Positions 8,567-46,733 of a stretch of DNA of 64,000 nucleotides are shown one piece after another. Origin of the DNA: a virus. Every line of letters begins with the position of its first letter. The stretch's first letter is position 1. The position numbers were made by a program, and so were the translations under genes. The stretch spans positions 64,001 to 128,000 of the IMG/VR virus record IMGVR_UViG_3300032401_000001; one strand, 5' to 3'. The notes under the pieces were generated by a model. That model worked only from the letters and a program-made list of their open reading frames with translations, was not told the DNA's origin and searched no databases.

Positions 8567-8580
8567 AAGGAGAATCGTAC

Positions 8581-33575: not shown

Positions 33576-34055
33576 ATGAGCGTATGGCGTAGCTTGCTCA
33601 TGGGCATCACCTGGCCGACGCGTCGCTGGCGCGTCGCCGCCGGGCGTTGTCCGTGGTGCAACGAAGAGCTGCTCAAGGCCGTGCTGCAGGGCGGTCCGCT
33701 CGATCATCGGCTGGGTGAGGTTGCCTACTGCCAGCGCTACCACTACTTCTCGAGCGTCTGCAAGTATCGGCAGCGTATCTTCGATGCAGTCACCGCGCAG
33801 AGCACTGAAGACGCCTACACCGTGAAGGTGCAGCTGCAGGACCCCAAGGGGAACCTGCCGCGGGAGACCCGGGAAGTCATCGACGCGCTTGTCTACGCTC
33901 TGCATCGCGTCGTGCTGTACGAGCGCATCGACGAGATCGACATGCAGTACTACAAGGAGCAGGCGACCCAGGCGGCGCTGCGGTCCAGTGAGCGGCTTCT
34001 TGATCGGCTGCTCTGTTTGGACGGCGGGGCTAGGGTGGCAAAGGGGTCACGATGA
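33576..34055 (+). CDS. hypothetical protein
   Basis: RBS gagga. Confidence 0.75.
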   Translation: MSVWRSLLMGITWPTRRWRVAAGRCPWCNEELLKAVLQGGPLDHRLGEVAYCQRYHYFSSVCKYRQRIFDAVTAQSTEDAYTVKVQLQDPKGNLPRETREVIDALVYALHRVVLYERIDEIDMQYYKEQATQAALRSSERLLDRLLCLDGGARVAKGSR

Positions 34056-34461
34056 TGTCGGTGCCCGAGAGCGTGGCCAGCGGGAGGTAGTAGCAGTTCT
34101 CGCGGATGATTCGCGTGGTCGTGACACCTTGAATCGTCAGCGTCTGCGTGGTGGCGTCGTGGATGAGCACACCGGCCGGTGAACGCGCGATCGCACGGAC
34201 CACACGCTGCAAGCCACCGTCGGTGTTCTCGGTGAGCAGCGTGACGAAGCTGCCACTGAGTTCACTGCCTTGAACGCCGGCGATGAAGAGCTCGAGGTCC
34301 TGGGCACGCAGGGTACGGCTCTGCGAGAGCACCGTGGTCAACACGTTCAGGATGACGCCACCAACTCCGGTGCCACCATCGCTGCAGTTGTAGTAGCGGA
34401 ACGTCCGGGTGTAGTTGGTGGCGGGGGTCTCGGTGCGCAGTGTGGTGTAGGCGAAGCTCAC
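34030..34461 (-). CDS. Thr-rich beta-strand protein, virion-like
   Basis: Isolated minus-strand ORF with TAGAAT just upstream. Confidence 0.7.
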   Translation of the reverse strand: MSFAYTTLRTETPATNYTRTFRYYNCSDGGTGVGGVILNVLTTVLSQSRTLRAQDLELFIAGVQGSELSGSFVTLLTENTDGGLQRVVRAIARSPAGVLIHDATTQTLTIQGVTTTRIIRENCYYLPLATLSGTDIIVTPLPP

Positions 34462-34487
34462 GGGGCCATTCTACTACGCTTCCCACC

Positions 34488-34520
34488 GTCGTAAACGCGC
34501 TCTTTCTTTCGGTACAAGGA
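34488..34520 (+). promoter_or_regulatory. phage promoter motif (CGTAAA-17 nt-TACAAG)
   Basis: ctttCGGTACAAGGA upstream of the 34539 gene. Confidence 0.6.
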
Positions 34521-34538
34521 CTTGAAAGGAAGGTGTCC

Positions 34539-35018
34539 ATGCGCGACGAGAAGCAGGGAATCCCGGAGTATGGCCCGGCTCTGATGGCCATCCTCATGGC
34601 CTACGAGTGCATCGCCGAACTCCCTCTCCAGGCGATGGCTCGCGCGTGCGGGTGCGACCTCGACGCGCTCAACGCGCGCGTCAACATCGCGTTCGACGGC
34701 GCCGTCATCTACATCGCGGTCGACGGGGCGACGTGGAGGTCGGCGATGAAGGACGGCGACAGTGGTCGCTGGCTCCTGACGCAGGAGCACCCGATCCCGC
34801 CCTCTGCGCGGGTGTGGTGCGACGTCTTCGGCAACGCCGAGGCGGCGGTGCGCGACACCCTGCGGGCGCTTGCCAACCGGCTGGCCAAGCCGGTGCCCTC
34901 CTACGAGGCCCAGCGGGGGGCCAACGAGGAGTACTACGAGAACGGCTGCGTCTCCGACTTCGCGCACGACCGCGCATGTCAGGAGATTGCAGGCAACGAG
35001 AAGCTGTCCGCTGCTTAG
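34539..35018 (+). CDS. hypothetical protein
   Basis: RBS aaggaagg, strong GC3 bias. Confidence 0.8.
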   Translation: MRDEKQGIPEYGPALMAILMAYECIAELPLQAMARACGCDLDALNARVNIAFDGAVIYIAVDGATWRSAMKDGDSGRWLLTQEHPIPPSARVWCDVFGNAEAAVRDTLRALANRLAKPVPSYEAQRGANEEYYENGCVSDFAHDRACQEIAGNEKLSAA

Positions 35019-35019
35019 C

Positions 35020-35390
35020 AGCGACTCCAGACAGTTAGCAGGAGGCTGGTACCGACTTCCCGCCCGGTGACCTCCAGTCCGTCGACGACGGCTCCTGGGG
35101 TGAGACCTGGTTATTCGGTGCGTGGAGTAGGATTTCCCGATTCGAGGAGGACGCCATGAACCCTGGGCAGTGTGCATCTACTACGGTCTGGCCGGGCGTT
35201 GCCCGCCAACTGGAGTAGATGGTCCTGGTCGCGGGCAAGGCCCGGTCAGACCTCGATGGCGTACCGCAGCCGCCAGCCGGTGTGAAGCTGGGAAGCGGGA
35301 GTTCCACCTGGAAGGATAGGTTGAGTCGTGGCGTCGCCCATCCGACGCCGTTTGTTGTGAGAACCGGGGACTCGAGTCCGGTTCTCTTTA
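35020..35390 (+). ncRNA. candidate structured non-coding element ending in a terminator
   Basis: catctact/agtagatg and ggcgtcg/cgacgcc helices; terminator gagaaccgg/ccggttctc-ttt at 35359-35389. Confidence 0.4.
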
Positions 35391-35393
35391 GGC

Positions 35394-35426
35394 GCAAAAC
35401 GGGGGCCTCTCTGCGGTACAAGGAAG
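35394..35426 (+). promoter_or_regulatory. phage promoter motif (..CGG-TACAAG-GAAG)
   Basis: ctctgCGGTACAAGGAAG upstream of the 35536 gene. Confidence 0.55.
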
Positions 35427-35535
35427 TGTCCCGGAACCATCGACCCTCTCTCCCAAGGGTAATCGGTGGTCGGCCGGGCACTCGTCGTGCGTCTCTCAGC
35501 TGAACGCATGACGGCACACGCATCAGGAGGCTCCC

Positions 35536-35889
35536 ATGAAAGCTGCTCGGCTGTTCGGCGTCACCGTTCTCTACGTCATCGTCGCGGCCATCTATGTGCC
35601 GGTGGTCGCCCTCCACATCGCCAGCTGGCCGGTCCGCATGGCCGCCTGGATCCTCGTCGGTCGGAATGCCCAGGGTGGGCTCGCCGGGGTGTGCGTCGGT
35701 CTGGCGAACCTCCTGCGGCGCCTGGCGCGCACGCAGACCGCGCTGGCCTACGGGTACAACAACCTGCAGGCGTACGACGAGCACGTCGCTGAGGAGGCCG
35801 CCCGCATGAAGGCGGAGTTCGAGGCGGGCCTCGCGGCGGGTCGGGCACACGCGGCTGCGGCCGCCGGTGCGGTGCCCAGCGCTACGTAA
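35536..35889 (+). CDS. membrane protein
   Basis: RBS aggagg; hydrophobic N-terminal half. Confidence 0.75.
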   Translation: MKAARLFGVTVLYVIVAAIYVPVVALHIASWPVRMAAWILVGRNAQGGLAGVCVGLANLLRRLARTQTALAYGYNNLQAYDEHVAEEAARMKAEFEAGLAAGRAHAAAAAGAVPSAT

Positions 35890-35973
35890 CACCTTCGTCC
35901 GTAGTACACTCCGGCTTCAAAGGGGCGCGCGTTGGGAGGCGTGCGCCCCTGCCTCTTTAGCTAGGGAGCGCGC

Positions 35974-36270
35974 ATGGACATCGGTGACGAAGTTGAAGTC
36001 GTGACCGCTGACAAGCATCACGAATGTGCTCGCATTGGTCAACGAGCGCGGGTCATTGGGCGTCAGGGACCGCTGTTGCAACTGCACCTGCGCTGTGGGC
36101 ATGTCTGGCCGATGCCCGAAGCTTCACTGCGCCAGCTCGATGCCACCGAAGTTGAAACGCCGGTGCGCGGTGAAAGCAACGCGGACCGCAAGCGTCGTGA
36201 GCAGGAAGAGGTCGAAGAGCAGAAACGCCTCGCACGAGAAGACGACCTGAGTTCTTTCGACGACGAGTGA
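35974..36270 (+). CDS. KOW/SH3-like small protein
   Basis: IGDEVEVV...GQRARVIG. Confidence 0.7.
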   Translation: MDIGDEVEVVTADKHHECARIGQRARVIGRQGPLLQLHLRCGHVWPMPEASLRQLDATEVETPVRGESNADRKRREQEEVEEQKRLAREDDLSSFDDE

Positions 36271-36301
36271 CCTGGCGGCGTGGTTGCGGTACCATGGGGA
36301 C

Positions 36302-36889
36302 ATGACACCTGACGACGAGAAGACTACGGATTCCCGGATCATCGAGAGCGCGGTGGCGGGTGCCGTAGCTGGATTGGCTGATGACGATGCGCCACTGGTG
36401 AAGGTCGAAGAGACGGCGTCACAGCGCTTCGCCAACTACTGCAAAGGCGTCGGGGGGCTCGTCAGCGGTATCACAGCGGTTGCGGCGGTGGTGCTCAGCA
36501 TCTTCGCATTGACGCGCGGTGAGCCGACAGCGAAGAAGGGCTACCAGGCCGTCGACGTGGTCGTCAAGCAACTCTCGACGGACATGCAGAAGGAACACGA
36601 CGACCGTATTCGAGTCGAGGCCCTGATGGGCAAAGACGTGACCTCAGTGCGCGAACAGCTGCAGTTGGTGGTGCAGCTGCTCTCGGTGCGCGCGACTCCG
36701 GCGGTGCGTCGACCCGTACGCTTGCCGCCGGTGACGAAGAGCAACCCGCCCACCGCCGCTCCTCCGGCACCGGCGTCACAGCCGGCGGAGATCCTGCAGA
36801 CCCTCACCTTGAAGTCGCAGGTGAAGATGACGAAGAAGGCACCGCCATCAGCGCGGCCACCGCTACGGAAGCTGCCGCCGCTTCCGTGA
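36302..36889 (+). CDS. single-TM protein with coiled coil and Pro-rich tail
   Basis: TM GGLVSGITAVAAVVLSIFAL; promoter-like cggTACCAT upstream. Confidence 0.75.
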   Translation: MTPDDEKTTDSRIIESAVAGAVAGLADDDAPLVKVEETASQRFANYCKGVGGLVSGITAVAAVVLSIFALTRGEPTAKKGYQAVDVVVKQLSTDMQKEHDDRIRVEALMGKDVTSVREQLQLVVQLLSVRATPAVRRPVRLPPVTKSNPPTAAPPAPASQPAEILQTLTLKSQVKMTKKAPPSARPPLRKLPPLP

Positions 36890-38020
36890 GTCGTGGTAGA
36901 GCGCGCGGACTCGGGCTACGGTCTCCTGGGGCTTGAGTTGCTTGCCCTGCGCTTGTGACCCTACGGACGTAGGGCCAGCGGTGCCTGGTGCCTTTGGTCG
37001 TGGCATAGTGGCCATGCTTTGATTCTGCCACAAGCTGAGATTCGCTGGTTTCCCTTTCCGTTCAGAACGTGCCAACGCGCGTCGTCGGTGCTACACCGAC
37101 AGAAGAGGCTACGGTAGAGGTGGTTGCGCCGCCGCAGTGAAACTCATCGCCCAGCTCGAGCCGGCTTCGCGGGCCTCCGGTGGTCTACCTCCTTCGTCCC
37201 AGCTCACCCGCCTCGAGCTGGGCGTATTCGCAACAACGAAGTGAACGGAATTTTGCTCGTCTGGTGTAGGGCTGTTCGTGAGTCGCGAATCACGAATCGC
37301 TGCCGCCGGCGTCACGCCGGCATTCTCGTGGGCACGAGAGTTCTCGGGTATGCGGTTGCTCGGACCAGGCCTGGTGCCGGTCCCCGCAACCAGCGATAGC
37401 AGACGAGGGTCGTCAGCCGGCTGCTGCGCCCGAAGAAGGGCTACGAATGCCCTTCTTCGCGCGCTGCCCCCCGGCTGTCGAACGTAGCAGACGAGAATGT
37501 TCTCTGCTGATGACCACCGCGTCCGGCGGTAAGTGCCCCCGGACGCCAGGTCATCAGCATGAAAACGTAGCAGACGAGAAGCGATGTGCGCGGCTGTCTA
37601 ACGTCCCGCCTCGGCTGCGCCGATCTGGGACGTCGACAGACCGTGCAACGAAGCAGACGAGCTTTGAGGCCTCAGTGCGCTGTCTGTCAGCGCTGGTAGT
37701 GCAACGCTACTCTGGTAGCTGCAGTGTGGCTCACCTCGTGATGTCGACCCGCCAGGCTGCGCTGCGCTTTCCTGGCGGTCGACATCCCTGCGGTGAAAGC
37801 CGAGCACCCACAGCCAACCGAGCTAAGTGAGGCTTCTACGAACCCTAGTACGCTGTCCCACAGCGTCGACGGCGTTACGGCCGTCTCTGGAGCTCCACTC
37901 GAGGTGACGAGGGCGCATGTCAGCTCCCAGTCGCCTCGACTGGGAACCGACATGCTTTCGGCGCCCGCCGAATGCCCAAGGCAACTGTAGGGTTCGGGAG
38001 TATCATCGGCACAGCAGCGG
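36890..38020. ncRNA. candidate very large structured non-coding region (~1.1 kb)
   Basis: Near-continuous hairpins, e.g. 37148-37160/37212-37224 (13 bp) and 37740-37756/37771-37786; no convincing ORF. Confidence 0.55.
37397..37661 (+). repeat. 4 x (AACG)TAGCAGACGAG repeats separated by unrelated hairpin spacers
   Basis: Cores at 37397, 37485, 37568, 37651 (period 88, 83, 83 nt). Confidence 0.8.
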
Positions 38021-38032
38021 AGGAGGTCGGCG

Positions 38033-38314
38033 ATGGCATACTTCGATCGCCGGGCGTGCCGGGACTACATGCACCTGGTGCTGTCACAGTTGGACGTGCC
38101 CCAGGTGCCGCTCCTATGGCACTATCTCGCGTACCGTGACGCGCGAATTCTCAGCTGCTTCGACGAAGATCAGCGCGCCAAGGTGCGTGGTCTCGTACAA
38201 GCCTGGGAGTGCCTCTTGCCGATGGAACAAGAGGACGTCATGGCGCATTTCGCTACTGTCCTCGAGGAGCTGGCGCGGCACCACGCCGCATTACCAAGTA
38301 AAGGACCTGGATGA
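38033..38314 (+). CDS. hypothetical protein
   Basis: RBS ggaggagg. Confidence 0.75.
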   Translation: MAYFDRRACRDYMHLVLSQLDVPQVPLLWHYLAYRDARILSCFDEDQRAKVRGLVQAWECLLPMEQEDVMAHFATVLEELARHHAALPSKGPG

Positions 38315-38943
38315 GCGCCAAGAACCGCAAGCAGGCTGCCAAGGCCTTTGACCAGTACCCCACTGATCCGCGCTTGGCGCGTGCCGGCTTCGAGAAGCTC
38401 TGTCAGCGGTACGGCAGCCGCCTCACGGAGATGACGACGTTCCTGGAGCCCGGTGCGGGTCGTGGTCCCTTCTGCCAGGCGGCACGTCTCTACTTGCCCA
38501 ACGTGTGCCGCGTCGTGGGCGTCGAGCGGCATGCGCCGCCACCGGACCGCTTCAAGTACGAGCTCGTGACGCAGGACTTCCTGGCATGGCAGCCCAAGTT
38601 CCGGCCCGACCTCATCGCTACCAACCCGCCGTTCACGCCGGCGGCAGAGTTCATCCGGCACAGCCAGGAACTGCTCGCGCAGGGCGGGTTGATGTTCTAC
38701 CTCATGCGCGTCGGTATCCTCGGGTCCAAGAAGCGACGTGAGCTGTGGCAGCAGGTCAACTTGCTCGAGACCTGGATCATTCGACCGCGGCCGAGCTTCC
38801 AGTACGAGGGTGGCAGCGATGCTTCGGAGTACGCATTCTTCGTGATGGACGGGCGGCAACCCAAGGCGGGGTGCAGTCAGCAGGTGCGGCAGGACTGGGT
38901 GGACTGGGACGGGGATACAGATGAGTTGTTCGAGGAGGAGTGA
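38311..38943 (+). CDS. SAM-dependent (amino/N6-type) DNA methyltransferase
   Basis: FLEPGAGRGPF (motif I), DFL, IATNPPF (motif IV). Confidence 0.85.
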   Translation: MSAKNRKQAAKAFDQYPTDPRLARAGFEKLCQRYGSRLTEMTTFLEPGAGRGPFCQAARLYLPNVCRVVGVERHAPPPDRFKYELVTQDFLAWQPKFRPDLIATNPPFTPAAEFIRHSQELLAQGGLMFYLMRVGILGSKKRRELWQQVNLLETWIIRPRPSFQYEGGSDASEYAFFVMDGRQPKAGCSQQVRQDWVDWDGDTDELFEEE

Positions 38944-39407
38944 TGGGACGCCTTCGCCACGGTCATACCCAGGGTGCGCGAATGACCGTTGAGTACCTGG
39001 CGTGGTGCAACATGATTCAGCGGTGTACGAACCCCAAGGTGCAGAGCTATGCTACGCACGGTGCTCGTGGGATCAAAGTTTGTGTGCGCTGGTTGACTGA
39101 TTTTCAGAACTTCCTGGCGGACATGGGACGGAAACCGCGTCCGAGTCATCGGTGGAGTCTTGAACGGAAGGACAACAACGGAGACTACGAACCTGGAAAT
39201 TGTTGCTGGGCAACTTCGAAAGCGCAGGGACGCAACAAGAGAGGTAATCGGCTATTCACCGTCTGGGGTCGAACTCAGTGCGCAGCTGCTTGGGCCGAAG
39301 AGTACGGAATGTCGAAGCAGACGCTGCGCGCACGCCTGCTCCGGGGTTGGTCGATGGAGCGGATTCTCACTACCCCAATTAAGTCGCCATTGCATCAAGC
39401 CTCTTGA
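38943..39407 (+). CDS. HNH-type homing endonuclease
   Basis: WCNMIQRC.NP...GARGIKVC.RW..FQNFLADMG...SLERKDNNGDYEPGNCCWAT...Q..N. Confidence 0.88.
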   Translation: MGRLRHGHTQGARMTVEYLAWCNMIQRCTNPKVQSYATHGARGIKVCVRWLTDFQNFLADMGRKPRPSHRWSLERKDNNGDYEPGNCCWATSKAQGRNKRGNRLFTVWGRTQCAAAWAEEYGMSKQTLRARLLRGWSMERILTTPIKSPLHQAS

Positions 39408-39432
39408 CGACGCTTTGTAGGCCGATTATCTT
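39404..39432 (+). promoter_or_regulatory. sigma70-like promoter
   Basis: TTGACG-17 nt-TATCTT. Confidence 0.55.
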
Positions 39433-39507
39433 ACGTAAAGTTACAGGTTTGTTGTGGCCTCCCTTCAGCCTCGTGTTCTTCCTCCTCCAGGCGGAAGAAT
39501 TGCTTGC

Positions 39508-39547
39508 AAACCCCCGGCGGGTGGCGCCTTGCCGGGGGTTTTCCTTT
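39508..39547 (+). terminator. intrinsic terminator-like hairpin upstream of the RRM gene
   Basis: aaacccccggc/gccgggggttt plus T-rich tail. Confidence 0.6.
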
Positions 39548-39589
39548 CTGCGCCACTTTTCGCAGTACGACCAAGGAGTGACTGAGAAC

Positions 39590-39958
39590 ATGCCCGACAC
39601 GAACCTCTACGTGGGCAACCTGCCCTGGGACATCACCAAGGAAGAGCTGGCGGCGCGCTTTGCGCAGTTCGGCGAAGTCCGTGGGGTACGCATCATCACC
39701 GACAAGGAGACGAGCCGATCGCGCGGCTTCGGTTTCGTCGAGTTCGCGCAGGCGGCCGACGCCCAGGCGGCCCTGGTCGAAGATGGCCAGGACTTCGGGG
39801 GCCGGGCGTTGCGCGTGAATCTCGCCAACCGCCAGAGCGAAGATCGACCGCGCAGCGGTAACGGCAACGGGCAGCGGCCCAAGAGCAACAGTGGCGGCGG
39901 CAAGCCCCGCGGCCACGGCGGCGGGCGTCCGCGCACGGCGTACGGCGACGAGGGCTGA
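39590..39958 (+). CDS. RRM (RNP-1) RNA-binding protein
   Basis: LYVGNL (RNP2), RGFGFVEF (RNP1), Gly/Arg-rich tail. Confidence 0.95.
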   Translation: MPDTNLYVGNLPWDITKEELAARFAQFGEVRGVRIITDKETSRSRGFGFVEFAQAADAQAALVEDGQDFGGRALRVNLANRQSEDRPRSGNGNGQRPKSNSGGGKPRGHGGGRPRTAYGDEG

Positions 39959-40044
39959 TGCTACGCGTCGTTGGTTGGTGTATCGTAGGACCAGTGCTAC
40001 TGTTCTTCACCATGGTAGTTCACGTGATGGAGTTCTTCTGCTGA
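39958..40044 (+). CDS. small hydrophobic peptide (28 aa)
   Basis: TGATG overlap; MLRVVGWCIVGPVLLFFTMVVHVMEFFC. Confidence 0.4.
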   Translation: MLRVVGWCIVGPVLLFFTMVVHVMEFFC

Positions 40045-40133
40045 TAGAGGCGCCCCACCGGGACCATCGGGGTATTCAACCGGACGTCGCCCACCGGCTA
40101 GTCACCGGCCGCTGCCTCGAAAGGGCGACACGA

Positions 40134-40469
40134 GGGCCTGAAACGGTTTCGACAGGGGTACAGAAGGCAGAGTAGCGTGCCGTGGTTGATCGGTGGGCCA
40201 CGTTAAAAGCCGATCAAAACCGAAAAGCGAACGACAACATCGTCCGCCAGCCCCTCCGCGCCGCGGCCTAGCCGAGGCGGGAGGAGCGGGGAAGCCCTCA
40301 GAGCTCCTGGCAACAGAAAGAGGGATGGTGGAGGCGCCGCAAGGCGCCCTGTAGCACCGGGTGAGGCTGGCCATACCGGTAACTACGCCAGCACGCCTCG
40401 CAAGAGGCTACGCACGTAGAAGCTCTACTGGAGTACTGCTGGACCCGGGTTCGACTCCCGGCAGGTCCA
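40134..40469 (+). ncRNA. ssrA: tmRNA; tag (A)ANDNIVRQPLRAAA at 40227-40271
   Basis: gggcctg/caggtcc acceptor with G3-U70, GGTTTCGAC D-like region, pk1, resume GCG AAC GAC AAC, TTCGACT T-loop. Confidence 0.95.
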
Positions 40470-40576
40470 ACTAAGCCCCGCCGGCGCGCGGTCAATCGTA
40501 TGGTAAACGCCCAGCGGCGCCGGCGGGGTGATACATTCGCTGGGCACCTCAAACTCAACATGACAGGAGCACGATC

Positions 40577-41314
40577 ATGAAGGCACAGCGGCTGAACCAG
40601 GTCATCTCCGTCGAGAAGGGCATCCGGAACAAGACCACGGAGCGCATCACGGAGCTGTATCACACCGTGCAGAAGCCGGCGCTCTTCGACGGCTTCAACA
40701 AGAAGTACCGCCCACTCGCCGAGGACGGCGAGCAGTTCCCGCCCGAGGACAAGCGGGTGCAGGTGAAGGGCATCGACGTCGTCAAGGAGCTGTTCGCGTG
40801 CATGCGCGAACTCTTCGACGTGACCCTCATCAAGGACAGCGCCAACTGCATGGCGAAGGCCGACGTGGTGGTAGGCGACAAGGTCGTCCTCAAGGACTGC
40901 CCGGCCACCTACCTGCTGTTCCTCGAGAAGCAGCTGACGGACCTCCACACCGCGATGTCGAAGATGCCGGTGCTCGACCCGGCCGAGGAGTGGGAGTTCG
41001 ACAAGAACGCGTCGCTGTACCGGACGCAGCCCGTCGAGACCGGCCGCACCAAGAAGGTGCAGAAGTCCCTGGTGCTGCTGGCGCCGACCGACAAGCACCC
41101 GGGACAGGCGCAGCTCATCACCGAGGACATGACGATCGGCTACTGGGGCACCGTGAAGTTCTCGGGGGCGATGGCACTGCCCGACAAGGAGCGGCTGCTC
41201 ATCCGCATCGAGAAGCTGCACCATGCGGTGAAGTTCGCCCGTGACGAAGCGAACACCGCCGGGGTGATCGACCGCAGCACCGAAGCGGTCTTCGACTACT
41301 TGACCAGCGCCTAG
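40577..41314 (+). CDS. conserved helical phage/bacterial protein (245 aa, RLNQVISVEKG family)
   Basis: RBS aggag; strong codon bias; resembles a widespread uncharacterised family. Confidence 0.85.
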   Translation: MKAQRLNQVISVEKGIRNKTTERITELYHTVQKPALFDGFNKKYRPLAEDGEQFPPEDKRVQVKGIDVVKELFACMRELFDVTLIKDSANCMAKADVVVGDKVVLKDCPATYLLFLEKQLTDLHTAMSKMPVLDPAEEWEFDKNASLYRTQPVETGRTKKVQKSLVLLAPTDKHPGQAQLITEDMTIGYWGTVKFSGAMALPDKERLLIRIEKLHHAVKFARDEANTAGVIDRSTEAVFDYLTSA

Positions 41315-41336
41315 CGATAGGCGTACAACGAGTTCA

Positions 41337-41510
41337 GGAGCACAAGCTCAAGCTCAAGCTCAAACTGAGAAGACCGGCGTCGGGGATACCCCCGTGGAGG
41401 TTCGAGTCCTCCGGCTCCCACTGCGTAGCGTTTTCGGGAGTCTGGCGAAATGGCAGACGCAGCCGCTGGTCGAACGTTCAAGCTCAACTTGTTGCTCCAA
41501 GCTCAAACTG
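41337..41510 (+). ncRNA. YrlA-like Y RNA 1 (circularly permuted tRNA mimic)
   Basis: Order: stem, variable arm, T arm (41396-41412), loop-closed 7-bp acceptor (41413-41442), D arm (41445-41460), stem; GTCGAACG at 41469; outer helix ggagcacaag/cttgttgctcc. Confidence 0.8.
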
Positions 41511-41533
41511 GGAACGTCGACACCGAATCGAAC

Positions 41534-41653
41534 GCGAAGCAAACCACGACGGAAACGCGGGTTCGAATCCCGCCGGGATCTCCAGGCAGTGCTGCACCCT
41601 TTGATCCTGTAGCCCAGCGGAAAGGCGCCGTCGCTCAGATCTTATCGCTTCGC
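41534..41653 (+). ncRNA. YrlA-like Y RNA 2 (circularly permuted tRNA mimic)
   Basis: T arm 41557-41573, loop-closed acceptor cgggatc/gatcctg, D arm 41612-41626, cgacgg/ccgtcg stem, outer gcgaagc/gcttcgc. Confidence 0.75.
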
Positions 41654-41723
41654 TTAAATGCCGTCGGTGGCGTATGCGTTCCAGCGCAAGAGTCACCCTT
41701 GAAAGGTGAATATCTACGCACCC

Positions 41724-41760
41724 GGCCGGGGGAGAGGATACCTCCCTCGGCCACTTTTTT
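41724..41760 (+). terminator. intrinsic terminator
   Basis: ggccggggg/ccctcggcc followed by T6. Confidence 0.75.
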
Positions 41761-41991
41761 AGCTTGACAGGCGTTTCAGATACGCTCATAGGTGGAGAAG
41801 AGGCAGATCTTCCGTGACCAGAAAAGCCACAATGACGCAGTTGCTGTCCAGCCAGGCCATTCGGCCATGGTCGGACGCGTGCGTCTTTGTGCGCCCGACC
41901 TCACAAAAGCCCGAGGGTACCGCGTACGCCAATACCCTCGGGCACGAAAGGCCACCAGGCGGCTAAGCTCGAGGGGAACTGAAGAAGAGCG

Positions 41992-42024
41992 AGGCCGCCT
42001 GGGAAAGAACCCCGGCGGCCTTTT
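41992..42024 (+). terminator. terminator-like hairpin immediately before the tRNA array
   Basis: aggccgcc/ggcggcct-ttt; alternative pairing with 41955-41963. Confidence 0.55.
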
Positions 42025-42048
42025 CGCATTTCAGGGGTACGAAGTCAC

Positions 42049-42136
42049 GCACGTGTAGGCCCGTAGGGCTCGGGGACCGGCTGTAAACCGGTTGGACACA
42101 GCGCCCAGGTTGGTTCGACTCCAGCCACGTGCACCA
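42049..42136 (+). tRNA. trnY: tRNA-Tyr(GTA)
   Basis: Cloverleaf, loop ctGTAaa, long variable arm, CCA. Confidence 0.9.
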
Positions 42137-42178
42137 TGACCAGACGATTGAAACGCGAGGCGTGTCCTGTGTTCCCAC

Positions 42179-42251
42179 GCCTCCGTGACGCAACTGGTAG
42201 CGTAGCGGGCTTTTACCCCGAAAGTTGCAGGTTCGACTCCTGCCGGAGGCA
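42179..42251 (+). tRNA. trnK: tRNA-Lys(TTT)
   Basis: Cloverleaf, loop ctTTTac. Confidence 0.9.
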
Positions 42252-42266
42252 CTGACGAGACGACAC

Positions 42267-42339
42267 ACGCGCCTAGCTCGACTGGCTGAGCACTCGGCTC
42301 TTACCCGAGAGGGTGTGGGTTCGACCCCCACGGCGCGTA
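42267..42339 (+). tRNA. trnK: tRNA-Lys(CTT)
   Basis: Cloverleaf, loop ctCTTac. Confidence 0.9.
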
Positions 42340-42346
42340 CCGATGA

Positions 42347-42419
42347 TCGGGACTAGCACAACTGGTGGTGCACACGGCTCTGACCCGTGCGGCTTCAGGT
42401 TCGAATCCTGAGTCCCGAA
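42347..42419 (+). tRNA. trnQ: tRNA-Gln(CTG)
   Basis: Cloverleaf, loop ctCTGac. Confidence 0.9.
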
Positions 42420-42472
42420 CCGAGGGTGGTTGATCACCACCGTGACAACCGAATAGTCGTCGTGGTCAGTGT

Positions 42473-42543
42473 CCACCAGTGGCTCGAAGGTCGAGCGGCT
42501 GCCTTATGAGCGGCAGGTGAGGGTTCGATTCCTTCCTGGTGGA
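42473..42543 (+). tRNA. trnI: tRNA-Ile(TAT)
   Basis: Cloverleaf, stem gctgc/gcggc, loop ctTATga. Confidence 0.85.
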
Positions 42544-42549
42544 CTTCAT

Positions 42550-42621
42550 GCCTCGTGAGCTTGTAAGGTCGAGCGCTCGCCTGAAGAGCGAGAGGGCTCC
42601 GTTCGATTCGGAGACGAGGCA
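42550..42621 (+). tRNA. trnF: tRNA-Phe(GAA)
   Basis: Cloverleaf, loop ctGAAga. Confidence 0.9.
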
Positions 42622-42628
42622 CCGACGA

Positions 42629-42700
42629 TCGGCCGTCGTCCAACGGTAGGACACTCGGCTTTGACCCGAGTAGTTGCACGTTCGAATCGTGCCGGCCGAA
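42629..42700 (+). tRNA. trnQ: tRNA-Gln(TTG)
   Basis: Cloverleaf, loop ctTTGac. Confidence 0.9.
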
Positions 42701-42704
42701 CTGA

Positions 42705-42781
42705 CGGGGTGTGGCTCAGCCTGGTAGAGCGCCTGCTTTGGGAGCAGGACGTCGCTGGTTCAAATCCAGTCACCCCGACCA
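42705..42781 (+). tRNA. trnP: tRNA-Pro(TGG)
   Basis: Canonical cloverleaf, CCA. Confidence 0.95.
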
Positions 42782-42782
42782 T

Positions 42783-42854
42783 TCTGGCGTCGCCTACTGG
42801 TAAGGCAGCCGGCTGTTAACCGGCCCTATGCAGGTTCGAATCCTGCCGCCAGAG
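42783..42854 (+). tRNA. trnN: tRNA-Asn(GTT)
   Basis: Cloverleaf, loop ctGTTaa. Confidence 0.92.
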
Positions 42855-42860
42855 CAACAC

Positions 42861-42933
42861 GCAGCTCTAGCTCATTTGGTAGAGCACTCGCCCGATAAGC
42901 GAGAGGTGCCGAGTCCGAATCTCGGGAGCTGCA
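42861..42933 (+). tRNA. trnI: tRNA-Ile(GAT)
   Basis: Cloverleaf, loop ccGATaa (C33), T-loop tccgaat. Confidence 0.88.
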
Positions 42934-42935
42934 CT

Positions 42936-43006
42936 GTGGCCGTGGCTCAATGGCTGAGCGCCGGGTTGTGGCCCCGGTTATGTGAGTTCGATTCTCACCG
43001 GTCACC
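42936..43006 (+). tRNA. trnH: tRNA-His(GTG)
   Basis: Cloverleaf, loop ttGTGgc, C73; G-1 not encoded. Confidence 0.88.
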
Positions 43007-43010
43007 CCGC

Positions 43011-43081
43011 GGGTCGATCGTCCAATGGGAGGACAGTGCTCTCGCACGGCGCAGATCGGAGTTCAACTCTCCGTCGATCCA
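43011..43081 (+). tRNA. trnA: tRNA-Ala(CGC)
   Basis: G3-U70, loop ctCGCac. Confidence 0.88.
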
Positions 43082-43085
43082 CAGA

Positions 43086-43156
43086 GGGGCCATCGTCCAA
43101 AGGGAAGATGCTGGTTCGGCAGACCAGAGATCGGGGTTCAATTCCCCGTGGCTCCA
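43086..43156 (+). tRNA. trnA: tRNA-Ala(GGC)
   Basis: G3-U70, loop tcGGCag (C33). Confidence 0.82.
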
Positions 43157-43159
43157 CGA

Positions 43160-43236
43160 GAGGTAGGAGCGGGTTCGATTCCCGCCGAGGCATCGAGCGA
43201 TGGTGCTTCGTGGTGTAACCTGGCGAGCACAACCTC
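43160..43236 (+). ncRNA. circularly permuted tRNA-like element inside the tRNA array
   Basis: gaggt, T arm (43169-43185), cgaggca, 11-nt linker, tgcttcg, D arm (43213-43230), acctc. Confidence 0.75.
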
Positions 43237-43241
43237 GTTAT

Positions 43242-43324
43242 GGAGAGTACTGGGGACGGTGACCCAACGCGGCTCGAACCCGCGGGCAGCCTCCGGGCTG
43301 GGCGTTCAACTCGTCTACTCTCCG
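43242..43324 (+). tRNA. trnS: tRNA-Ser(CGA)
   Basis: Long variable arm, loop ctCGAac, G73. Confidence 0.88.
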
Positions 43325-43330
43325 CAGCAT

Positions 43331-43403
43331 GCCGCTGAGCTCACCTGGTGGTGAGGCCCGCCTGTCACGCGGGAACCGGCGAGTTCGATCCTCGTCAGCG
43401 GCG
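43331..43403 (+). tRNA. trnD: tRNA-Asp(GTC)
   Basis: Loop ctGTCac, G73. Confidence 0.88.
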
Positions 43404-43462
43404 CCGAGCATCGGAGACCGGAACGCGTCCCGTGGGTACCCGGGCCGGAACGATGCTCATCT

Positions 43463-43549
43463 GGAAGCGCTGTGGGCATCGGTGCCCCACGCCGGTCCGC
43501 TACACCGGTGAGCCTCACGGCTCTGCTCGTTCAACTCGAGTCGCTTCCG
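43463..43549 (+). tRNA. trnS: tRNA-Ser(GCT)
   Basis: Long variable arm, loop ccGCTac (C33), G73. Confidence 0.82.
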
Positions 43550-43554
43550 CTCTC

Positions 43555-43630
43555 GCGGCCATAGTTCATTCAGTAGAACGCCGGCTTGCCAAGTCGGAGG
43601 TGCCGGGGGCAGAGCCCGGTGGCCGCTCCA
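43555..43630 (+). tRNA. trnG: tRNA-Gly(GCC)
   Basis: Loop ttGCCaa, U73, CCA; atypical T-loop ggcagag. Confidence 0.88.
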
Positions 43631-43666
43631 ATTGCGAAAAGTCTCGGGTTAGAGTAGACTGTTTCC

Positions 43667-44062
43667 GTGCCCTACAAAGACCCTGACCAACAACGAGCAT
43701 ACATTCGAGCTTGGCGTCAGCAAAGACGGCGTACGTGGCTCACTGAACACGGACCGTGCATATACTGCAAGAGCACCCGACGTCTTGAAGTACACCACCG
43801 TGACCCAACAAAGAAGGTCACACACAACGTGTGGTCATGGTCAGAATCCCGTCGCGAAAGAGAACTCGCGAAGTGCGTCGTAGCGTGTCACCAGTGCCAT
43901 GAAAGAATCAGTACGACCGCACGAGAACCAAAGCACGGGACGAACAGTCGCTACACCAGTTACCGATACCGCTGTCGATGCACCGATTGTCACACTGCGC
44001 ACATCGCAGCAGATCGTGCATATCGACGAAAGAAACATGGAGAGGCCGACTCGCATCGGTGA
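43667..44062 (+). CDS. HNH endonuclease inserted in the tRNA array
   Basis: CIYC...LEVHHRDP...CHQCH; HGT..Y..CRC..C; lower GC. Confidence 0.85.
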   Translation: MPYKDPDQQRAYIRAWRQQRRRTWLTEHGPCIYCKSTRRLEVHHRDPTKKVTHNVWSWSESRRERELAKCVVACHQCHERISTTAREPKHGTNSRYTSYRYRCRCTDCHTAHIAADRAYRRKKHGEADSHR

Positions 44063-44126
44063 CGAGCGCGTGTCTGGAAAGCACGTGTACCGAAAGGTAC
44101 TGAGCGTTCAACTCGCTTCCTCTCCG
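44039..44126 (+). tRNA. trnS: tRNA-Ser(GGA)
   Basis: Loop ctGGAaa, long variable arm; overlaps the 3' end of the HNH ORF. Confidence 0.88.
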
Positions 44127-44133
44127 CTACAAC

Positions 44134-44208
44134 GCGAGCTAAGTCACCGGGCGTGACGCCAGCCTTCCAAGCTGGACATGACGGGTTCGAGCCCCGTAGC
44201 TCGCTCCA
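44134..44208 (+). tRNA. trnG: tRNA-Gly(TCC)
   Basis: Loop ctTCCaa, U73, CCA. Confidence 0.92.
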
Positions 44209-44209
44209 T

Positions 44210-44282
44210 CCGGGTGTAGGGCAGTGGTTGTCCCGCCTGTTTCGGGAACAGGAGCACGCCAGTTCGATCCTGGCCGCCCGGA
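44210..44282 (+). tRNA. trnP: tRNA-Pro(CGG)
   Basis: Loop ttCGGga. Confidence 0.9.
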
Positions 44283-44286
44283 CAAC

Positions 44287-44375
44287 GCCAAGGTGGTTCG
44301 GAATTGGTAGACATCTCCGGCTGAGAACTGGAGGGGCGAAAGCCCGTGCGGGTTCGAGTCCCGCCCTTGGCACCA
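44287..44375 (+). tRNA. trnL: tRNA-Leu(GAG)
   Basis: Type II cloverleaf, loop ctGAGaa, CCA. Confidence 0.92.
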
Positions 44376-44376
44376 T

Positions 44377-44465
44377 GCACAGGTGGTTCGGAATTGGTAG
44401 ACATCCACGGCTCAGAACCGTGGGGGCGCAAGCCCGTGAGGGTTCGAGTCCCTCCCTGTGCACCA
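44377..44465 (+). tRNA. trnL: tRNA-Leu(CAG)
   Basis: Type II cloverleaf, loop ctCAGaa, CCA; near-duplicate of the previous gene. Confidence 0.92.
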
Positions 44466-44466
44466 C

Positions 44467-44542
44467 GCCGCTGAAGCTCACCAGGTAGAGCGCTCGGCTC
44501 GTATCCGAGAGGAAGCTGGTTCGAATCCAGTCAGCGGCTCCA
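44467..44542 (+). tRNA. trnT: tRNA-Thr(CGT)
   Basis: Loop ctCGTat, CCA. Confidence 0.92.
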
Positions 44543-44545
44543 TTC

Positions 44546-44618
44546 GCTGCGGTAGCACAATTGGCGGTGCATCTGATTTGTAATCAGAAGGTTCTCGGTT
44601 CGAAGCCGAGCCGCAGCT
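44546..44618 (+). tRNA. trnT: tRNA-Thr(TGT)
   Basis: Loop ttTGTaa. Confidence 0.92.
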
Positions 44619-44623
44619 CCGCT

Positions 44624-44638
44624 CTTTACGCGGTAAAG
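44624..44638. promoter_or_regulatory. palindrome CTTTAC-gcg-GTAAAG between tRNA genes
   Basis: Direct sequence. Confidence 0.7.
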
Positions 44639-44641
44639 AAC

Positions 44642-44712
44642 GGCCCCATCTGCTAACGGAAGGCAACTGGGTTCTCAACCCGGAAACGAGGGTTCAACTC
44701 CCTCTGGGGTCA
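44642..44712 (+). tRNA. trnE: tRNA-Glu(CTC)
   Basis: Loop ttCTCaa. Confidence 0.88.
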
Positions 44713-44717
44713 CCGAC

Positions 44718-44792
44718 GCTCTCATGGTCTAACGGACAGGATACTGGACTTTCACTCCAGGGGCGGGAGTTCAACTCTCCCTGAGAGCACCA
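44718..44792 (+). tRNA. trnE: tRNA-Glu(TTC)
   Basis: Loop ctTTCac, CCA. Confidence 0.9.
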
Positions 44793-44793
44793 T

Positions 44794-44868
44794 CCGGGAT
44801 TGGTTCACTGGCGGAACGGCAGCCCTACAAGCTGCTCTAAGGGGGTTCGATTCCCTCATCCCGGACCA
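44794..44868 (+). tRNA. trnV: tRNA-Val(TAC)
   Basis: Loop ccTACaa (C33), CCA. Confidence 0.87.
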
Positions 44869-44869
44869 C

Positions 44870-44941
44870 ACGCGGTTGGCTCAGCGGCTGAGCACCTGCT
44901 CGACGCGCAGGTCTAGGCAGGTTCGACCCCTGCACCGCGTA
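44870..44941 (+). tRNA. trnV: tRNA-Val(GAC)
   Basis: Loop tcGACgc (C33). Confidence 0.85.
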
Positions 44942-44946
44942 CTGAT

Positions 44947-45019
44947 GGGTGCGTAGCTCACTTGGGAGAGCGCGAGCTTTGCAAGCTTGAGGCAGAGGGT
45001 TCGAATCCCTTCGCATCCA
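44947..45019 (+). tRNA. trnA: tRNA-Ala(TGC)
   Basis: G3-U70, loop ttTGCaa. Confidence 0.92.
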
Positions 45020-45025
45020 CTTCAT

Positions 45026-45101
45026 GCCGACGTAGCACATCTGGCAGTGCGCATCCTTGGTAAGGATGAGGTAGCCGGTTCGACTCCGGCCGTCGGCTCC
45101 A
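45026..45101 (+). tRNA. trnT: tRNA-Thr(GGT)
   Basis: Loop ttGGTaa, CCA. Confidence 0.93.
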
Positions 45102-45102
45102 C

Positions 45103-45174
45103 GGGTCACGCTCTGGGTCAGCGCACTGGACTCCAAACCCGGTTGGCGGCGAGGTTCGATTCCTCGGTGACCCG
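45103..45174 (+). tRNA. trnW: tRNA-Trp(CCA)
   Basis: Loop ctCCAaa, G73; short D arm. Confidence 0.8.
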
Positions 45175-45178
45175 CTAC

Positions 45179-45252
45179 GGTACCGTCGCCAAGAGGCCAG
45201 GCTCCGGTCTGCAAAACCGGCAACGCGGGTTCAACTCCCGCCGGTACCTCCA
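45179..45252 (+). tRNA. trnC: tRNA-Cys(GCA)
   Basis: Loop ctGCAaa, U73, CCA. Confidence 0.92.
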
Positions 45253-45253
45253 C

Positions 45254-45324
45254 GCTCCGCGGTGCGGCGCCAGCCGGGCCTTCTAATCCCAGCACTCCGG
45301 GTTCGACTCCCGGGCGGAGCTCCA
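45254..45324 (+). tRNA. trnR: degenerate tRNA-Arg(TCT)-like gene
   Basis: Perfect acceptor and T arm, CCA; weak anticodon stem, loop ctTCTaa, reduced D arm. Confidence 0.6.
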
Positions 45325-45346
45325 GTTTCACCGTCTGCTGAAACCT

Positions 45347-45418
45347 GCCCCGCTAGTGAAACGGAGATCACAGCGCACTCCTAAGGCGCGAGTCCCAGTT
45401 CGACTCTGGGGCGGGGCG
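45347..45418 (+). tRNA. trnR: tRNA-Arg(CCT)
   Basis: Loop ctCCTaa. Confidence 0.88.
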
Positions 45419-45422
45419 CTGC

Positions 45423-45494
45423 ACCGTCGTCCAAGCGGCTTGGCCTCGCCCTCCGAAGGCAAGTGTGAGGGTTCAACTCCCTCCGACGGTACCA
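45423..45494 (+). tRNA. trnR: tRNA-Arg(CCG)
   Basis: Loop ctCCGaa, CCA. Confidence 0.85.
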
Positions 45495-45495
45495 T

Positions 45496-45567
45496 CTCCT
45501 CCTAGTGAAACGGACATCACTCTGGTCTACGGAACCAGCATTCCGAGTTCGAATCTCGGGGAGGAGG
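45496..45567 (+). tRNA. trnR: tRNA-Arg(ACG)
   Basis: Loop ctACGga. Confidence 0.9.
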
Positions 45568-45571
45568 CTAC

Positions 45572-45653
45572 GCGAGCGTGGCGGAACTGGCAGACGCGCC
45601 GGACTTAGGCTCCGGTGTCGCAAGACGTGCAGGTTCAACTCCTGTCGCTCGCA
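45572..45653 (+). tRNA. trnL: tRNA-Leu(TAG)
   Basis: Type II, loop ctTAGgc. Confidence 0.92.
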
Positions 45654-45658
45654 CCGAC

Positions 45659-45746
45659 GCGTGAGTGGGTGGAACCGGCAGACCCGGCTGCCTTAAAAGC
45701 GGCTGCTCTTCGGAGCGTGCGAGTTCGAGTCTCGCCTCACGCACCA
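45659..45746 (+). tRNA. trnL: tRNA-Leu(TAA)
   Basis: Type II, loop ctTAAaa, CCA. Confidence 0.92.
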
Positions 45747-45747
45747 C

Positions 45748-45823
45748 TGCGGGGAGGACCGGCTGTCCGGCCCGGCCTCATAAGCCGGCTTGCACGAGGG
45801 TTCGACTCCCTCCTCCGCAACCA
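45748..45823 (+). tRNA. trnM: tRNA-Met(CAT)
   Basis: Loop ctCATaa, CCA; Met versus Ile2 identity not resolved. Confidence 0.8.
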
Positions 45824-45824
45824 A

Positions 45825-45897
45825 CAGGGTAGGGCTCGGATGGTTGAGCGCCAGTCTGGGGGACTGGAGGACGCGGGTTCGAGTCCCGCTGCCCTGA
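45825..45897 (+). tRNA. trnP: tRNA-Pro(GGG)
   Basis: Loop ctGGGgg. Confidence 0.88.
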
Positions 45898-45901
45898 CTA
45901 C

Positions 45902-45986
45902 GCGAGCGTGCTTGGAATTGGCAGACAGCACCGGCTCAAACCCGGTGGCCCTTCGGGACATGAGGGTTCGACTCCCTCCGCTCGCA
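45902..45986 (+). tRNA. trnL: tRNA-Leu(CAA)
   Basis: Type II, loop ctCAAac. Confidence 0.92.
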
Positions 45987-46053
45987 CTGACGATGACCAC
46001 GTCGGCTATTCTTAGGGAGTACCATGACCTGGAAGATACGCTTGAGGTGACCC

Positions 46054-46563
46054 GTGCAAACGACCTTAGTACTGGACCAATCGATGCAACCCATCAACAT
46101 CGTCTCCTGGCATCGTGCTGTCGGCATGATGCTGACGGGGTCAGCGGACGTGCTCGAAGAGTACGACCAGCTCGTGCATCCGTGGATTCAGATGCCGGCC
46201 GTCGTCCGCCTCAAGCACAACGTCAGCCGCGGCAAGCAGAAGGTGAAGTTCAGCCGCGCCAACGTGCTGATGCGGGATCGTTGCCGGTGCCAGTACTGTG
46301 GGCAGAAATTCTCGGCCCGGGAGTTGACGTTCGACCACGTCGTGCCCCGCTGCCGCGGCGGCAAGACCGAGTGGGAGAACATCGTCATGGCTTGCTGGCC
46401 GTGCAACGATGCCAAGGGTGGGCGGCTACCTCAACAGGCCGACATGCGGCTCCTCCGCGCGCCGGTACGGCCCTCGTGGGTGCCGCACTACAACCCTCGG
46501 CTGAAGACGTGCGATGTTCCACCCGAGTGGCGATGCTACTGGACGGTGGAGCTCGAGTCGTAG
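46054..46563 (+). CDS. HNH endonuclease (McrA-like)
   Basis: FSRANVLMRD...CQYCG...LTFDHVVPRCRGG...WENIVMACWPCNDAKG. Confidence 0.93.
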   Translation: MQTTLVLDQSMQPINIVSWHRAVGMMLTGSADVLEEYDQLVHPWIQMPAVVRLKHNVSRGKQKVKFSRANVLMRDRCRCQYCGQKFSARELTFDHVVPRCRGGKTEWENIVMACWPCNDAKGGRLPQQADMRLLRAPVRPSWVPHYNPRLKTCDVPPEWRCYWTVELES

Positions 46564-46597
46564 TAGGATGAAATCTCTGGTGATCGTCGTGCTGGTA

Positions 46598-46639
46598 GAC
46601 GGCGCTCCGTGTCGCTACACGGGGCGCCGTCGCTATTTT
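46598..46639 (+). terminator. long hairpin / terminator-like
   Basis: gacggcgctccgtg/cacggggcgccgtc. Confidence 0.5.
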
Positions 46640-46723: not shown

Positions 46724-46733
46724 CTTCTTTAGG

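Follow-up and report, generated by a model that had tools for sequence, protein, structure and literature searches.

The linker-hairpin array and the locus around it

The window analyzed here is a 64,000-nt stretch (bases 64001-128000) of a 197,792-bp IMG/VR virus record, a phage genome of 63% G+C that is rated complete and comes from sediment metagenomes; coordinates are those of the window throughout. Between two genes of this phage lies a hairpin-rich gap, most of which (about 1 kb, 37040-38000) is a conserved non-coding locus organized around an array of long hairpins that alternate with copies of a short linker. Using homologues of the two flanking proteins, we located the counterparts of this gap in six related metagenomic phage contigs, denoted L124 (= L129), L125, L126 (= L127), L131, L132, and L133, which together with the window make up the seven loci compared below; the array of L133 ends with the end of its contig. 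In all six relatives, the gap measures 0.6-1.2 kb and separates the same two genes in the same gene order, and the flanking proteins are 51-89% identical.

The main regularity of the locus, which is absent from the list of inverted repeats given in the original prediction for this region, is a direct repeat of 11-17 nt present in four copies (37397, 37485, 37568, and 37651) at spacings of 88, 83, and 83 nt. The repeat belongs to a linker of the form AACG-N-AGCAGACGAG (37394-37407, 37481-37495, 37564-37578, and 37647-37661), and the linkers of this array (37394-37661) alternate with three hairpin units, U1 (37408-37484), U2 (37496-37563), and U3 (37579-37646). A composite unit, U4 (37662-37838), follows; it contains several hairpins, including the one at 37740-37786, and closes with a degenerate fifth linker (37812-37822). 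Each array unit folds as a 25-28-bp hairpin with a loop of 7-12 nt, bulges, and asymmetric internal loops. Within the 197,792-bp genome, both the linker and the apex of U1 are confined to this locus. Over the seven loci, the linker is intact in nearly all copies despite the divergence of neighboring proteins down to ~55-60% identity, and its sequence is under strong purifying selection.

The array is modular. The linker is present in four copies, plus the degenerate fifth, in the window, in three copies each in L131, L132, and L125, in two copies each in L124 and L126, and in at least two complete copies in L133 before the contig ends; a further contig, L130, has the same two-copy array as L124. 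The units differ as well: U1 is common to six loci and U2 is shared by the window and L131, L133 carries other units, and U4 occurs in the window, L131, and L132 but is missing from L124 and L125. The stems beneath the small CGGC-UGC-GCCG cap hairpin of one unit differ markedly among the window, L125, and L132. In L124 and in a DNA contig from another sample (sequencing run X6), a 343-nt deletion lies exactly between linker copies and joins linker 2 straight to position 37839. These differences in copy number, the swaps of units in the same slots, and the 343-nt deletion show that strains have gained, lost, and traded units at the linkers.

Compensatory changes were found in several of the hairpins. 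In the U1 alignment, 94% of the cells are paired and 11 of the 25 pairs are changed on both sides, a count reached in none of 500 column shuffles (slid controls gave at most two); the test includes only six sequences, and relatedness inflates such tests, so that the result is indicative, rather than proof, of pairing maintained by compensatory change. In the hairpin that precedes the array (37351-37391), both-sided changes occur at five pairs, and U2 of the window differs from that of L131 by an A-U to G-C swap. Comparison by eye of the hairpin at 37915-37955 with its counterparts in L132 and L125 revealed several paired positions that differ with the pairing kept.

Upstream of the array, the locus contains an inverted copy of the linker core, the anti-motif CTCGTCTGGT (37256-37265), which is complementary to eight contiguous linker bases and sits 120-143 nt ahead of the first linker in all seven loci. 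A second word, TCGCTGC (37297-37303), is complementary to another part of the linker. In the fold computed from the alignment, the anti-motif and TCGCTGC are each paired with linker copies; for five of six loci, the minimum-energy fold joins the anti-motif to the last linker copy and encloses 250-720 nt. According to these models, the anti-motif can pair with a linker copy and close the array as one domain; in duplex energy calculations, it showed no preference for any one linker copy.

The word TCGCTGC is part of a conserved core (37275-37391), the most conserved block of the gap, which comprises hairpins at 37275-37296, 37305-37321 (7 bp, near-invariant), 37323-37341, and 37351-37391 (the covarying hairpin described above). 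On the left of the anti-motif lies segment B (37040-37255), a set of variable hairpins. In the window, it includes a CUA-triloop hairpin of 7 bp (37084-37100), a hairpin of 77 nt that is closed by arms of 13 bp (37148-37224), and, at 37235-37248, the conserved word AACGAAGTGAACGG. In five relatives, segment B contains an additional hairpin module of ~175 nt that is missing in the window and in L126, where the whole segment is only 40 nt long. On the right, the array is followed by a conserved tail (37839-37996). Hairpins occupy 37851-37865, 37868-37885, and 37957-37972 of this tail, the last of them a small one, and between the second and the third lie a degenerate linker, AGGTGACGAG (37902-37911), and, at 37915-37955, a 19-bp hairpin with TTTC after it. 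The tail begins with the 9-mer CGAACCCTA (37839-37847) and ends ~140 nt further on with its inverted copy TAGGGTTCG (37988-37996); its invariant words are present in five loci. The long tail hairpin could serve as a terminator, and the two 9-mers might form a long-range helix.

Every inverted repeat that the original prediction listed is present in its place, including the 13-bp arms 37148-37160/37212-37224, the helix at 37740-37786, and the hairpin at 37925-37945. Its description of all of 36890-38020 as hairpin-packed holds in part: folded as single-stranded RNA, 37250-37960 reaches -378 kcal/mol vs -299 +/- 6.8 kcal/mol for dinucleotide shuffles (z = -11.7), whereas the folding of 37040-37250 exceeds chance modestly (z = -3.0). 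Likewise, in a genome-wide scan with 120-nt windows, 36890-37280 is average for a genome of 63% G+C, and only 37280-37960 stands out. The most stable folding block of the genome, at 8430-9300, consists of 9-nt-periodic, collagen-like (Gly-X-Y) repeats and, judged from this period only, is probably coding rather than RNA.

Two explanations for individual elements were rejected. The linker resembles a minus-strand extended -10 promoter element (TGnTACGTT), an assignment discarded because the second base of the hexamer varies between copies and lineages. A 14-nt identity of one U1 arm with the upstream gene, considered as a possible antisense target, is not kept in L125.

Coding status and gene neighborhood

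The gap was originally described as free of open reading frames (ORFs), which is accurate for 37040-38032. There, the G+C content of third codon positions (GC3) is flat (over ~36900-37950, the spread is at most 0.18 vs 0.3-0.6 in the flanking genes), and the several mechanically called ORFs of 53-127 aa gain stops, lose coverage, or are without a counterpart in the relatives, where stops or indels of a length not divisible by three fall within these frames. A conserved protein-coding frame, the finding that was to count against the prediction, occurs in the first 126 nt only, at the left end of the stretch. This end shows period-3 conservation in the alignment with the relatives and overlaps a small minus-strand ORF (36863-37015) that shares the final 27 nt of the upstream plus-strand gene and encodes a basic, Pro/Gln-rich protein of 50 aa in the window and 50-57 aa in the relatives. 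The ORF is unbroken in all six relatives at 56-94% identity, its indels are whole codons, and the differences at codon positions 1, 2, and 3 number 280:208:498. Together, these patterns assign 36890-37015, on sequence grounds, to a small conserved gene on the minus strand, as its 5' portion. A hairpin within this ORF (36960-36976) persists in L125 and L126 through paired synonymous changes.

Next to the small ORF, on the same strand, is a 19-mer (37021-37039) that includes TGGCAGAAT, an element of the extended -10 type, and is nearly invariant in all seven loci. The ATG of the small ORF constantly lies 5 nt past the 19-mer in all seven loci, and TGGCAGAAT stops 6 nt short of this ATG, a spacing suggestive of a leaderless mRNA. 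Thus, the small gene is probably leaderless, with the 19-mer as its putative promoter. The TGGCAGAAT 9-mer occurs four times in the genome, three times at or near the edges of non-coding gaps. The other copies, at 3788 (plus strand), 19014 (minus strand), and 124099 (plus strand, beyond the window), are located near the edges of other non-coding gaps.

Downstream of the gap, the gene order is a 93-aa gene, a TaqI-like DNA methyltransferase, an HNH endonuclease, a protein with a single RNA recognition motif (RRM), transfer-messenger RNA (tmRNA), DUF7873, weak YrlA-like matches, and ~40 tRNA genes. The start of this operon (38001-38035, plus strand) includes a -10-like hexamer TATCAT (38001-38006) and the ribosome-binding site (RBS) GGAGGAGG (38019-38026) ahead of the 93-aa gene, whose ATG is at 38033. 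A TANNNT hexamer ~26-32 nt ahead of this start codon is present in the window, L124, L131, L132, L125, and L126. The 93-aa gene is kept in the relatives at 59-89% identity; for its product, we obtained a helical model of moderate confidence, with a mean predicted local distance difference test (pLDDT) score of 79.5, which gave no fold match in PDB at E <= 0.001, and no family assignment. The next protein, of 210 aa, was considered as an RNA enzyme and is not obviously one; it is a TaqI-like DNA methyltransferase. The HNH endonuclease gene (38940-39407, plus strand) lies between the methyltransferase and RRM genes and is missing from every relative; since all relatives have the RRM gene directly after the methyltransferase, it is probably a recent mobile insertion.

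The RRM gene is located 1.1-1.4 kb 3' of the gap in every relative whose contig extends that far. In the window, the RRM ORF (39404-39958, plus strand) is 184 aa long vs 116-128 aa in the relatives, and its 5' end is probably over-called; a sigma-70-like promoter at 39404-39432 and, at 39508-39541, a hairpin resembling a strong terminator both fall in the first third of this ORF. The YrlA (Y RNA-like) match, at 41525-41654 just past the DUF7873 gene, is weak (31.6 bits vs a gathering threshold of 69), and no Ro60 gene was found among the proteins scanned. Further downstream, 43555-43627 and 45102-45174 match the Rfam tRNA clan where ARAGORN called no gene and might be additional or unusual tRNA genes.

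The closest named relatives of the DUF7873 protein are encoded by ~194-kb Arthrobacter phages (47% identity). These phages show no synteny with the window at the gap, and the annotation of the nearest of them by DUF7873, Racecar, contains no equivalent gap. Apart from chance matches, database searches for the array pattern recovered only this phage lineage. Neither the region nor the 12 kb around it had a DNA match in the INPHARED phage collection. In IMG/VR, a scan with a 14-mer motif yielded single chance matches only, neither the two-linker pattern nor the invariant-core pattern was found, and protein-guided scans with the 201-aa, 93-aa, and DUF7873 proteins and with an alignment of the 201-aa protein detected no relatives. 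The two-linker pattern had two matches in ~185,000 prokaryote genomes, both coding-like chance matches, and in JGI metagenomes it retrieved two related contigs of this lineage and one unrelated contig, L128. In L128 (781-883), the 15-mer AACGCAGCAGACGAG is part of a 47-nt tandem repeat between two ABC-ATPase genes (EcfA-like by inspection), which we judged to be a coincidence.

Other gaps of this genome were inspected as well. At G000:C1:7836-8667, beyond the window, a non-coding locus between convergent genes contains four AACGAAGT(G/A)G words, two GCCGG..CCGGC paralogues of the core hairpin (one terminator-like, with a T-run behind it), and a 7-bp hairpin with a CUA triloop. Within the window, 19075-19938 (0.86 kb) was left uncalled by a crude GC3 filter; it folds with z = -9.4 vs shuffles and contains long hairpins at 19544-19599, 19750-19793, and 19794-19841 along with another CUA-triloop hairpin. 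Genome-wide, the plus strand has five CTA-triloop hairpins whose stems are perfect over 6 bp or more, three of them in non-coding gaps, against a single one with the complementary TAG loop.

Candidate functions of the locus

The reading that we favor, while placing it just short of an even chance, is that the locus encodes a new modular structured RNA in which the repeated linker would be a specific binding, pairing, or processing site. Such an RNA would include the conserved core with its anti-motif, continue with an invariant 10-15-nt linker alternating with rigid 25-28-bp hairpins, and end in a tail whose long hairpin precedes the promoter-like hexamer and RBS of the next operon. The linker might be recognized by a protein in a sequence-specific manner or engage in intramolecular pairing, and the hairpins might be spacers or arms that display several linker copies, or else be released by cleavage at the linker. 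Judged from synteny only, the nearest candidate partner of the linker would be the single-RRM protein encoded 1.1-1.4 kb downstream. The original proposal of one very large non-coding RNA (ncRNA) or several processed RNAs accordingly survives in part: the locus is non-coding and conserved, U1 covaries, and a one-domain fold is possible, whereas the suggested link to the GOLLD and ROOL RNAs does not hold.

The architecture of the hairpins bears on whether they form in RNA or in DNA. With their 7-12-nt loops, bulges, and asymmetric internal loops, they have a shape that fits folding of a single strand better than extrusion of a cruciform from a duplex, and these large asymmetric loops, together with the conserved, strand-asymmetric apical sequences, would favor single-stranded folding over cruciforms. 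As to the strand, we lean slightly toward rightward, plus-strand transcription of the locus. Two C-to-T changes in the hairpin 37305-37321 of L131 leave the pairing intact only as G-U on the plus strand; on the minus strand, two A-C mismatches of the terminal hairpin would become G-U pairs. In RNA run X18, low coverage extends from 37406 into the downstream genes, and 36803-37405 has no coverage, which does not signify the absence of a transcript.

Several results weigh against the interpretation of the locus as an RNA. The alignment fold energies of the two strands are equivalent, -81.5 kcal/mol for the plus strand vs -84.6 kcal/mol for the minus strand, and folding without G-U pairs with typing of mismatches, one-sided substitutions, and counts of UUCG and GNRA loops gave only a slight lean toward the plus strand. 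The changes in U1 are nearly all from one Watson-Crick pair to another, with a single G-U intermediate, a pattern that a DNA hairpin would yield as well. No convincing promoter was identified 5' of the array on either strand. A 181-nt metatranscriptome contig (depth 2, four differences) covers 37541-37681, a weak hint of expression given that depth and possible DNA carry-over. The pairing of linker and anti-motif has no support from covariation because both partners are invariant. Finally, the genome has at least two further hairpin-rich, presumably non-coding gaps, and eight of the 12 words of the AACG(A/T)AG(T/C)(A/G)G type lie in non-coding gaps, so that the locus may belong to a broader non-coding punctuation of the phage.

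A more specific form of the RNA interpretation, which we regard as doubtful, is a new class of large modular phage RNAs of ~250-720 nt, in which an invariant 8-9-bp helix between the anti-motif and the last linker would close a domain with cassette-like arms and the linker would be read by an RNA-binding protein, the RRM protein being the candidate. If so, the locus would be part of a phage "RNA module" together with the RRM protein, tmRNA, Y-like RNA, and tRNAs. To our knowledge, large structured phage RNAs such as GOLLD and ROOL are few and their function is poorly understood, and almost no RNA partners are known for bacterial and phage RRM proteins. The locus is compact and lends itself to testing: an invariant 10-15-nt word alternates with covarying hairpins, nature supplies variants of two, three, and four units, and a conserved RRM gene is nearby.

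The symmetry of the two strands, the prevalence of Watson-Crick to Watson-Crick changes in the stems, and the lack of an identified promoter would be expected if the array functioned at the DNA level, with the linker and anti-motif as duplex binding sites of a phage protein involved in replication origin function, partition, packaging, or recombination, and with the hairpins extruded or formed in single-stranded DNA. The arrangement of the sites also fits, with direct copies 79-88 bp apart, or about eight helical turns, and one conserved inverted copy. We nevertheless consider this unlikely: the large asymmetric loops, bulges, and strand-asymmetric conserved apices are poorly suited to extrusion from a duplex, no replication, partition, or terminase gene adjoins the locus, and the cumulative GC-skew minimum is near 19 kb of the window, away from it.

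Improbable to a similar degree is recombinogenic punctuation without a dedicated RNA function, analogous to REP/BIME, PeSL, or Gut-1 elements, in which the hairpins would be terminators or insulators and the linker would promote shuffling. The gain, loss, and swapping of units at the linkers are what such elements would produce, and the other hairpin-rich gaps share AACGAAGT-type words and the GCCGG..CCGGC hairpin, one copy of which has a T-run. Yet the linker is unique to this locus, the hairpins lack U-tails, and the units flank no ORFs; moreover, 25-28-bp stems, conserved apical loops, and an invariant 10-mer maintained across ~55-60% protein identity exceed the needs of termination or recombination. 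Even if the locus were mere punctuation, the small gene and its putative promoter would still be separated from the supposedly ORF-free stretch, and the lineage would be seen to keep several ~1-kb hairpin-rich gaps.

The location of the array directly upstream of, and in the same orientation as, an operon that includes ~6 kb of structured RNA genes, along with the low RNA-library coverage running from 37406 into the downstream genes, could point to a cis-acting leader. Such a leader would mediate processive antitermination, in the manner of the HK022 put elements or boxA, or the processing or stability of a long, mostly untranslated transcript. The initial TGCTC of the anti-motif is, we presume, boxA-like; no similarity to put or boxA elements was found in the Rfam scans of the locus. 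The long tail hairpin with its TTTC and the conserved -10-like hexamer separate the array from the 93-aa gene, and the RRM/tmRNA part is also preceded by a sigma-70-like promoter and a strong terminator, which makes a leader function quite improbable. That the whole stretch is a known large ncRNA (GOLLD or ROOL) or protein-coding is hardly credible, the mechanical ORFs and a GOLLD- or ROOL-like size and near-tRNA position notwithstanding, given that no Rfam family matches, GC3 is flat, the frames are broken by stops and non-triplet indels in the relatives, and only 36863-37015 is coding.

Comparison with known RNA and DNA arrays

Kinship with GOLLD (RF01998) and ROOL (RF03087), which the original prediction had invoked, was addressed by the cmscan search against Rfam that it proposed. 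In the scan of 34000-48000 at E <= 1, nothing matched within 36890-38032, and in the scan of 36800-38100 at E <= 10, only matches resembling microRNA precursors were detected, at 10-23 bits, far under the gathering thresholds. As no Rfam family matches, the locus is neither GOLLD nor ROOL. It resembles them as a large, structured, non-coding phage region a few kilobases from a tRNA cluster, possibly forming a closed multi-arm domain, and differs in having a variable number of interchangeable arms on a repeated linker instead of a fixed fold.

Alternation of constant and variable segments at a regular period is also typical of CRISPR and ToxI arrays; here, in contrast, the constant part is 10-15 nt and the variable parts are self-complementary and conserved among the relatives. 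CRISPR repeats are ~23-47 nt long with spacers that are not self-complementary, whereas the "spacers" of this array are 25-28-bp hairpins. A PADLOC scan of seven neighboring proteins identified no defense family other than DNA methyltransferase models, and no cas gene is among these seven. The ~34-36-nt tandem repeats and ToxN-type endoribonuclease characteristic of type III ToxI-like systems were not found either; the units differ from one another except for the linker, and no such protein was found among the neighbors scanned. The R''/R' sites of integron attC elements (RYYYAAC/GTTRRRY) do not correspond to the unit ends, which read G(T/C)(C/T)(G/A)AAC-G in most loci, with L125 alone fitting GTTRRRY by eye; no search for an integrase was made.

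Closer in appearance are REP/BIME elements and the Gut-1 RNA motif (RF01706), rows of stable hairpins on a constant short linker with an unknown or regulatory function. These elements are short and REP sequences are dispersed in many copies, whereas the locus described here is single in the genome and has 25-28-bp stems and conserved apical loops. The linker and the U1 apex are restricted to one locus, and only a 17-nt core hairpin has two weak paralogues, which is not the dispersal seen in REP/BIME. Gut-1, YrlA, and other hairpin-array motifs of Rfam gave no covariance-model match at the locus. As a working analogy only, the short motif repeated on a hairpin-rich RNA recalls protein-sponge RNAs of the CsrB/RsmZ type, to which the locus has no sequence relation and from which it differs in having only two to four motif copies. 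Of the features generic to structured ncRNAs, compensatory pairs in excess of shuffled and slid controls were found in U1.

With respect to modularity, there is a parallel with PeSLs, composite terminator/promoter sequences that mediate gene swapping in the hyperplastic regions of T4-type phages (PMC4122927). PeSLs resemble the linkers in being short conserved motifs beside stem-loops that act as points of homologous exchange, with indels between close strains (Arbiol et al. 2010, PMC2839356; Comeau et al. 2014, PMC4122927). Recombination points of this type are evident here in the 343-nt deletion of the X6 contig and L124 and in the different units that occupy the same slots of L131, L132, and L125. 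The combination of a terminator with an early promoter and exchanged genes was not observed: there are no ORFs between the units, no promoter consensus, and no U-tails. Unlike in PeSLs, the linker is not a recognizable promoter, the units are long, covarying hairpins, and the motif is limited to one locus. The locus shows that strains can shuffle non-coding "arms" at a short linker, a form of RNA or regulatory DNA evolution so far known chiefly from the promoter-terminator cassettes of T4-type phages.

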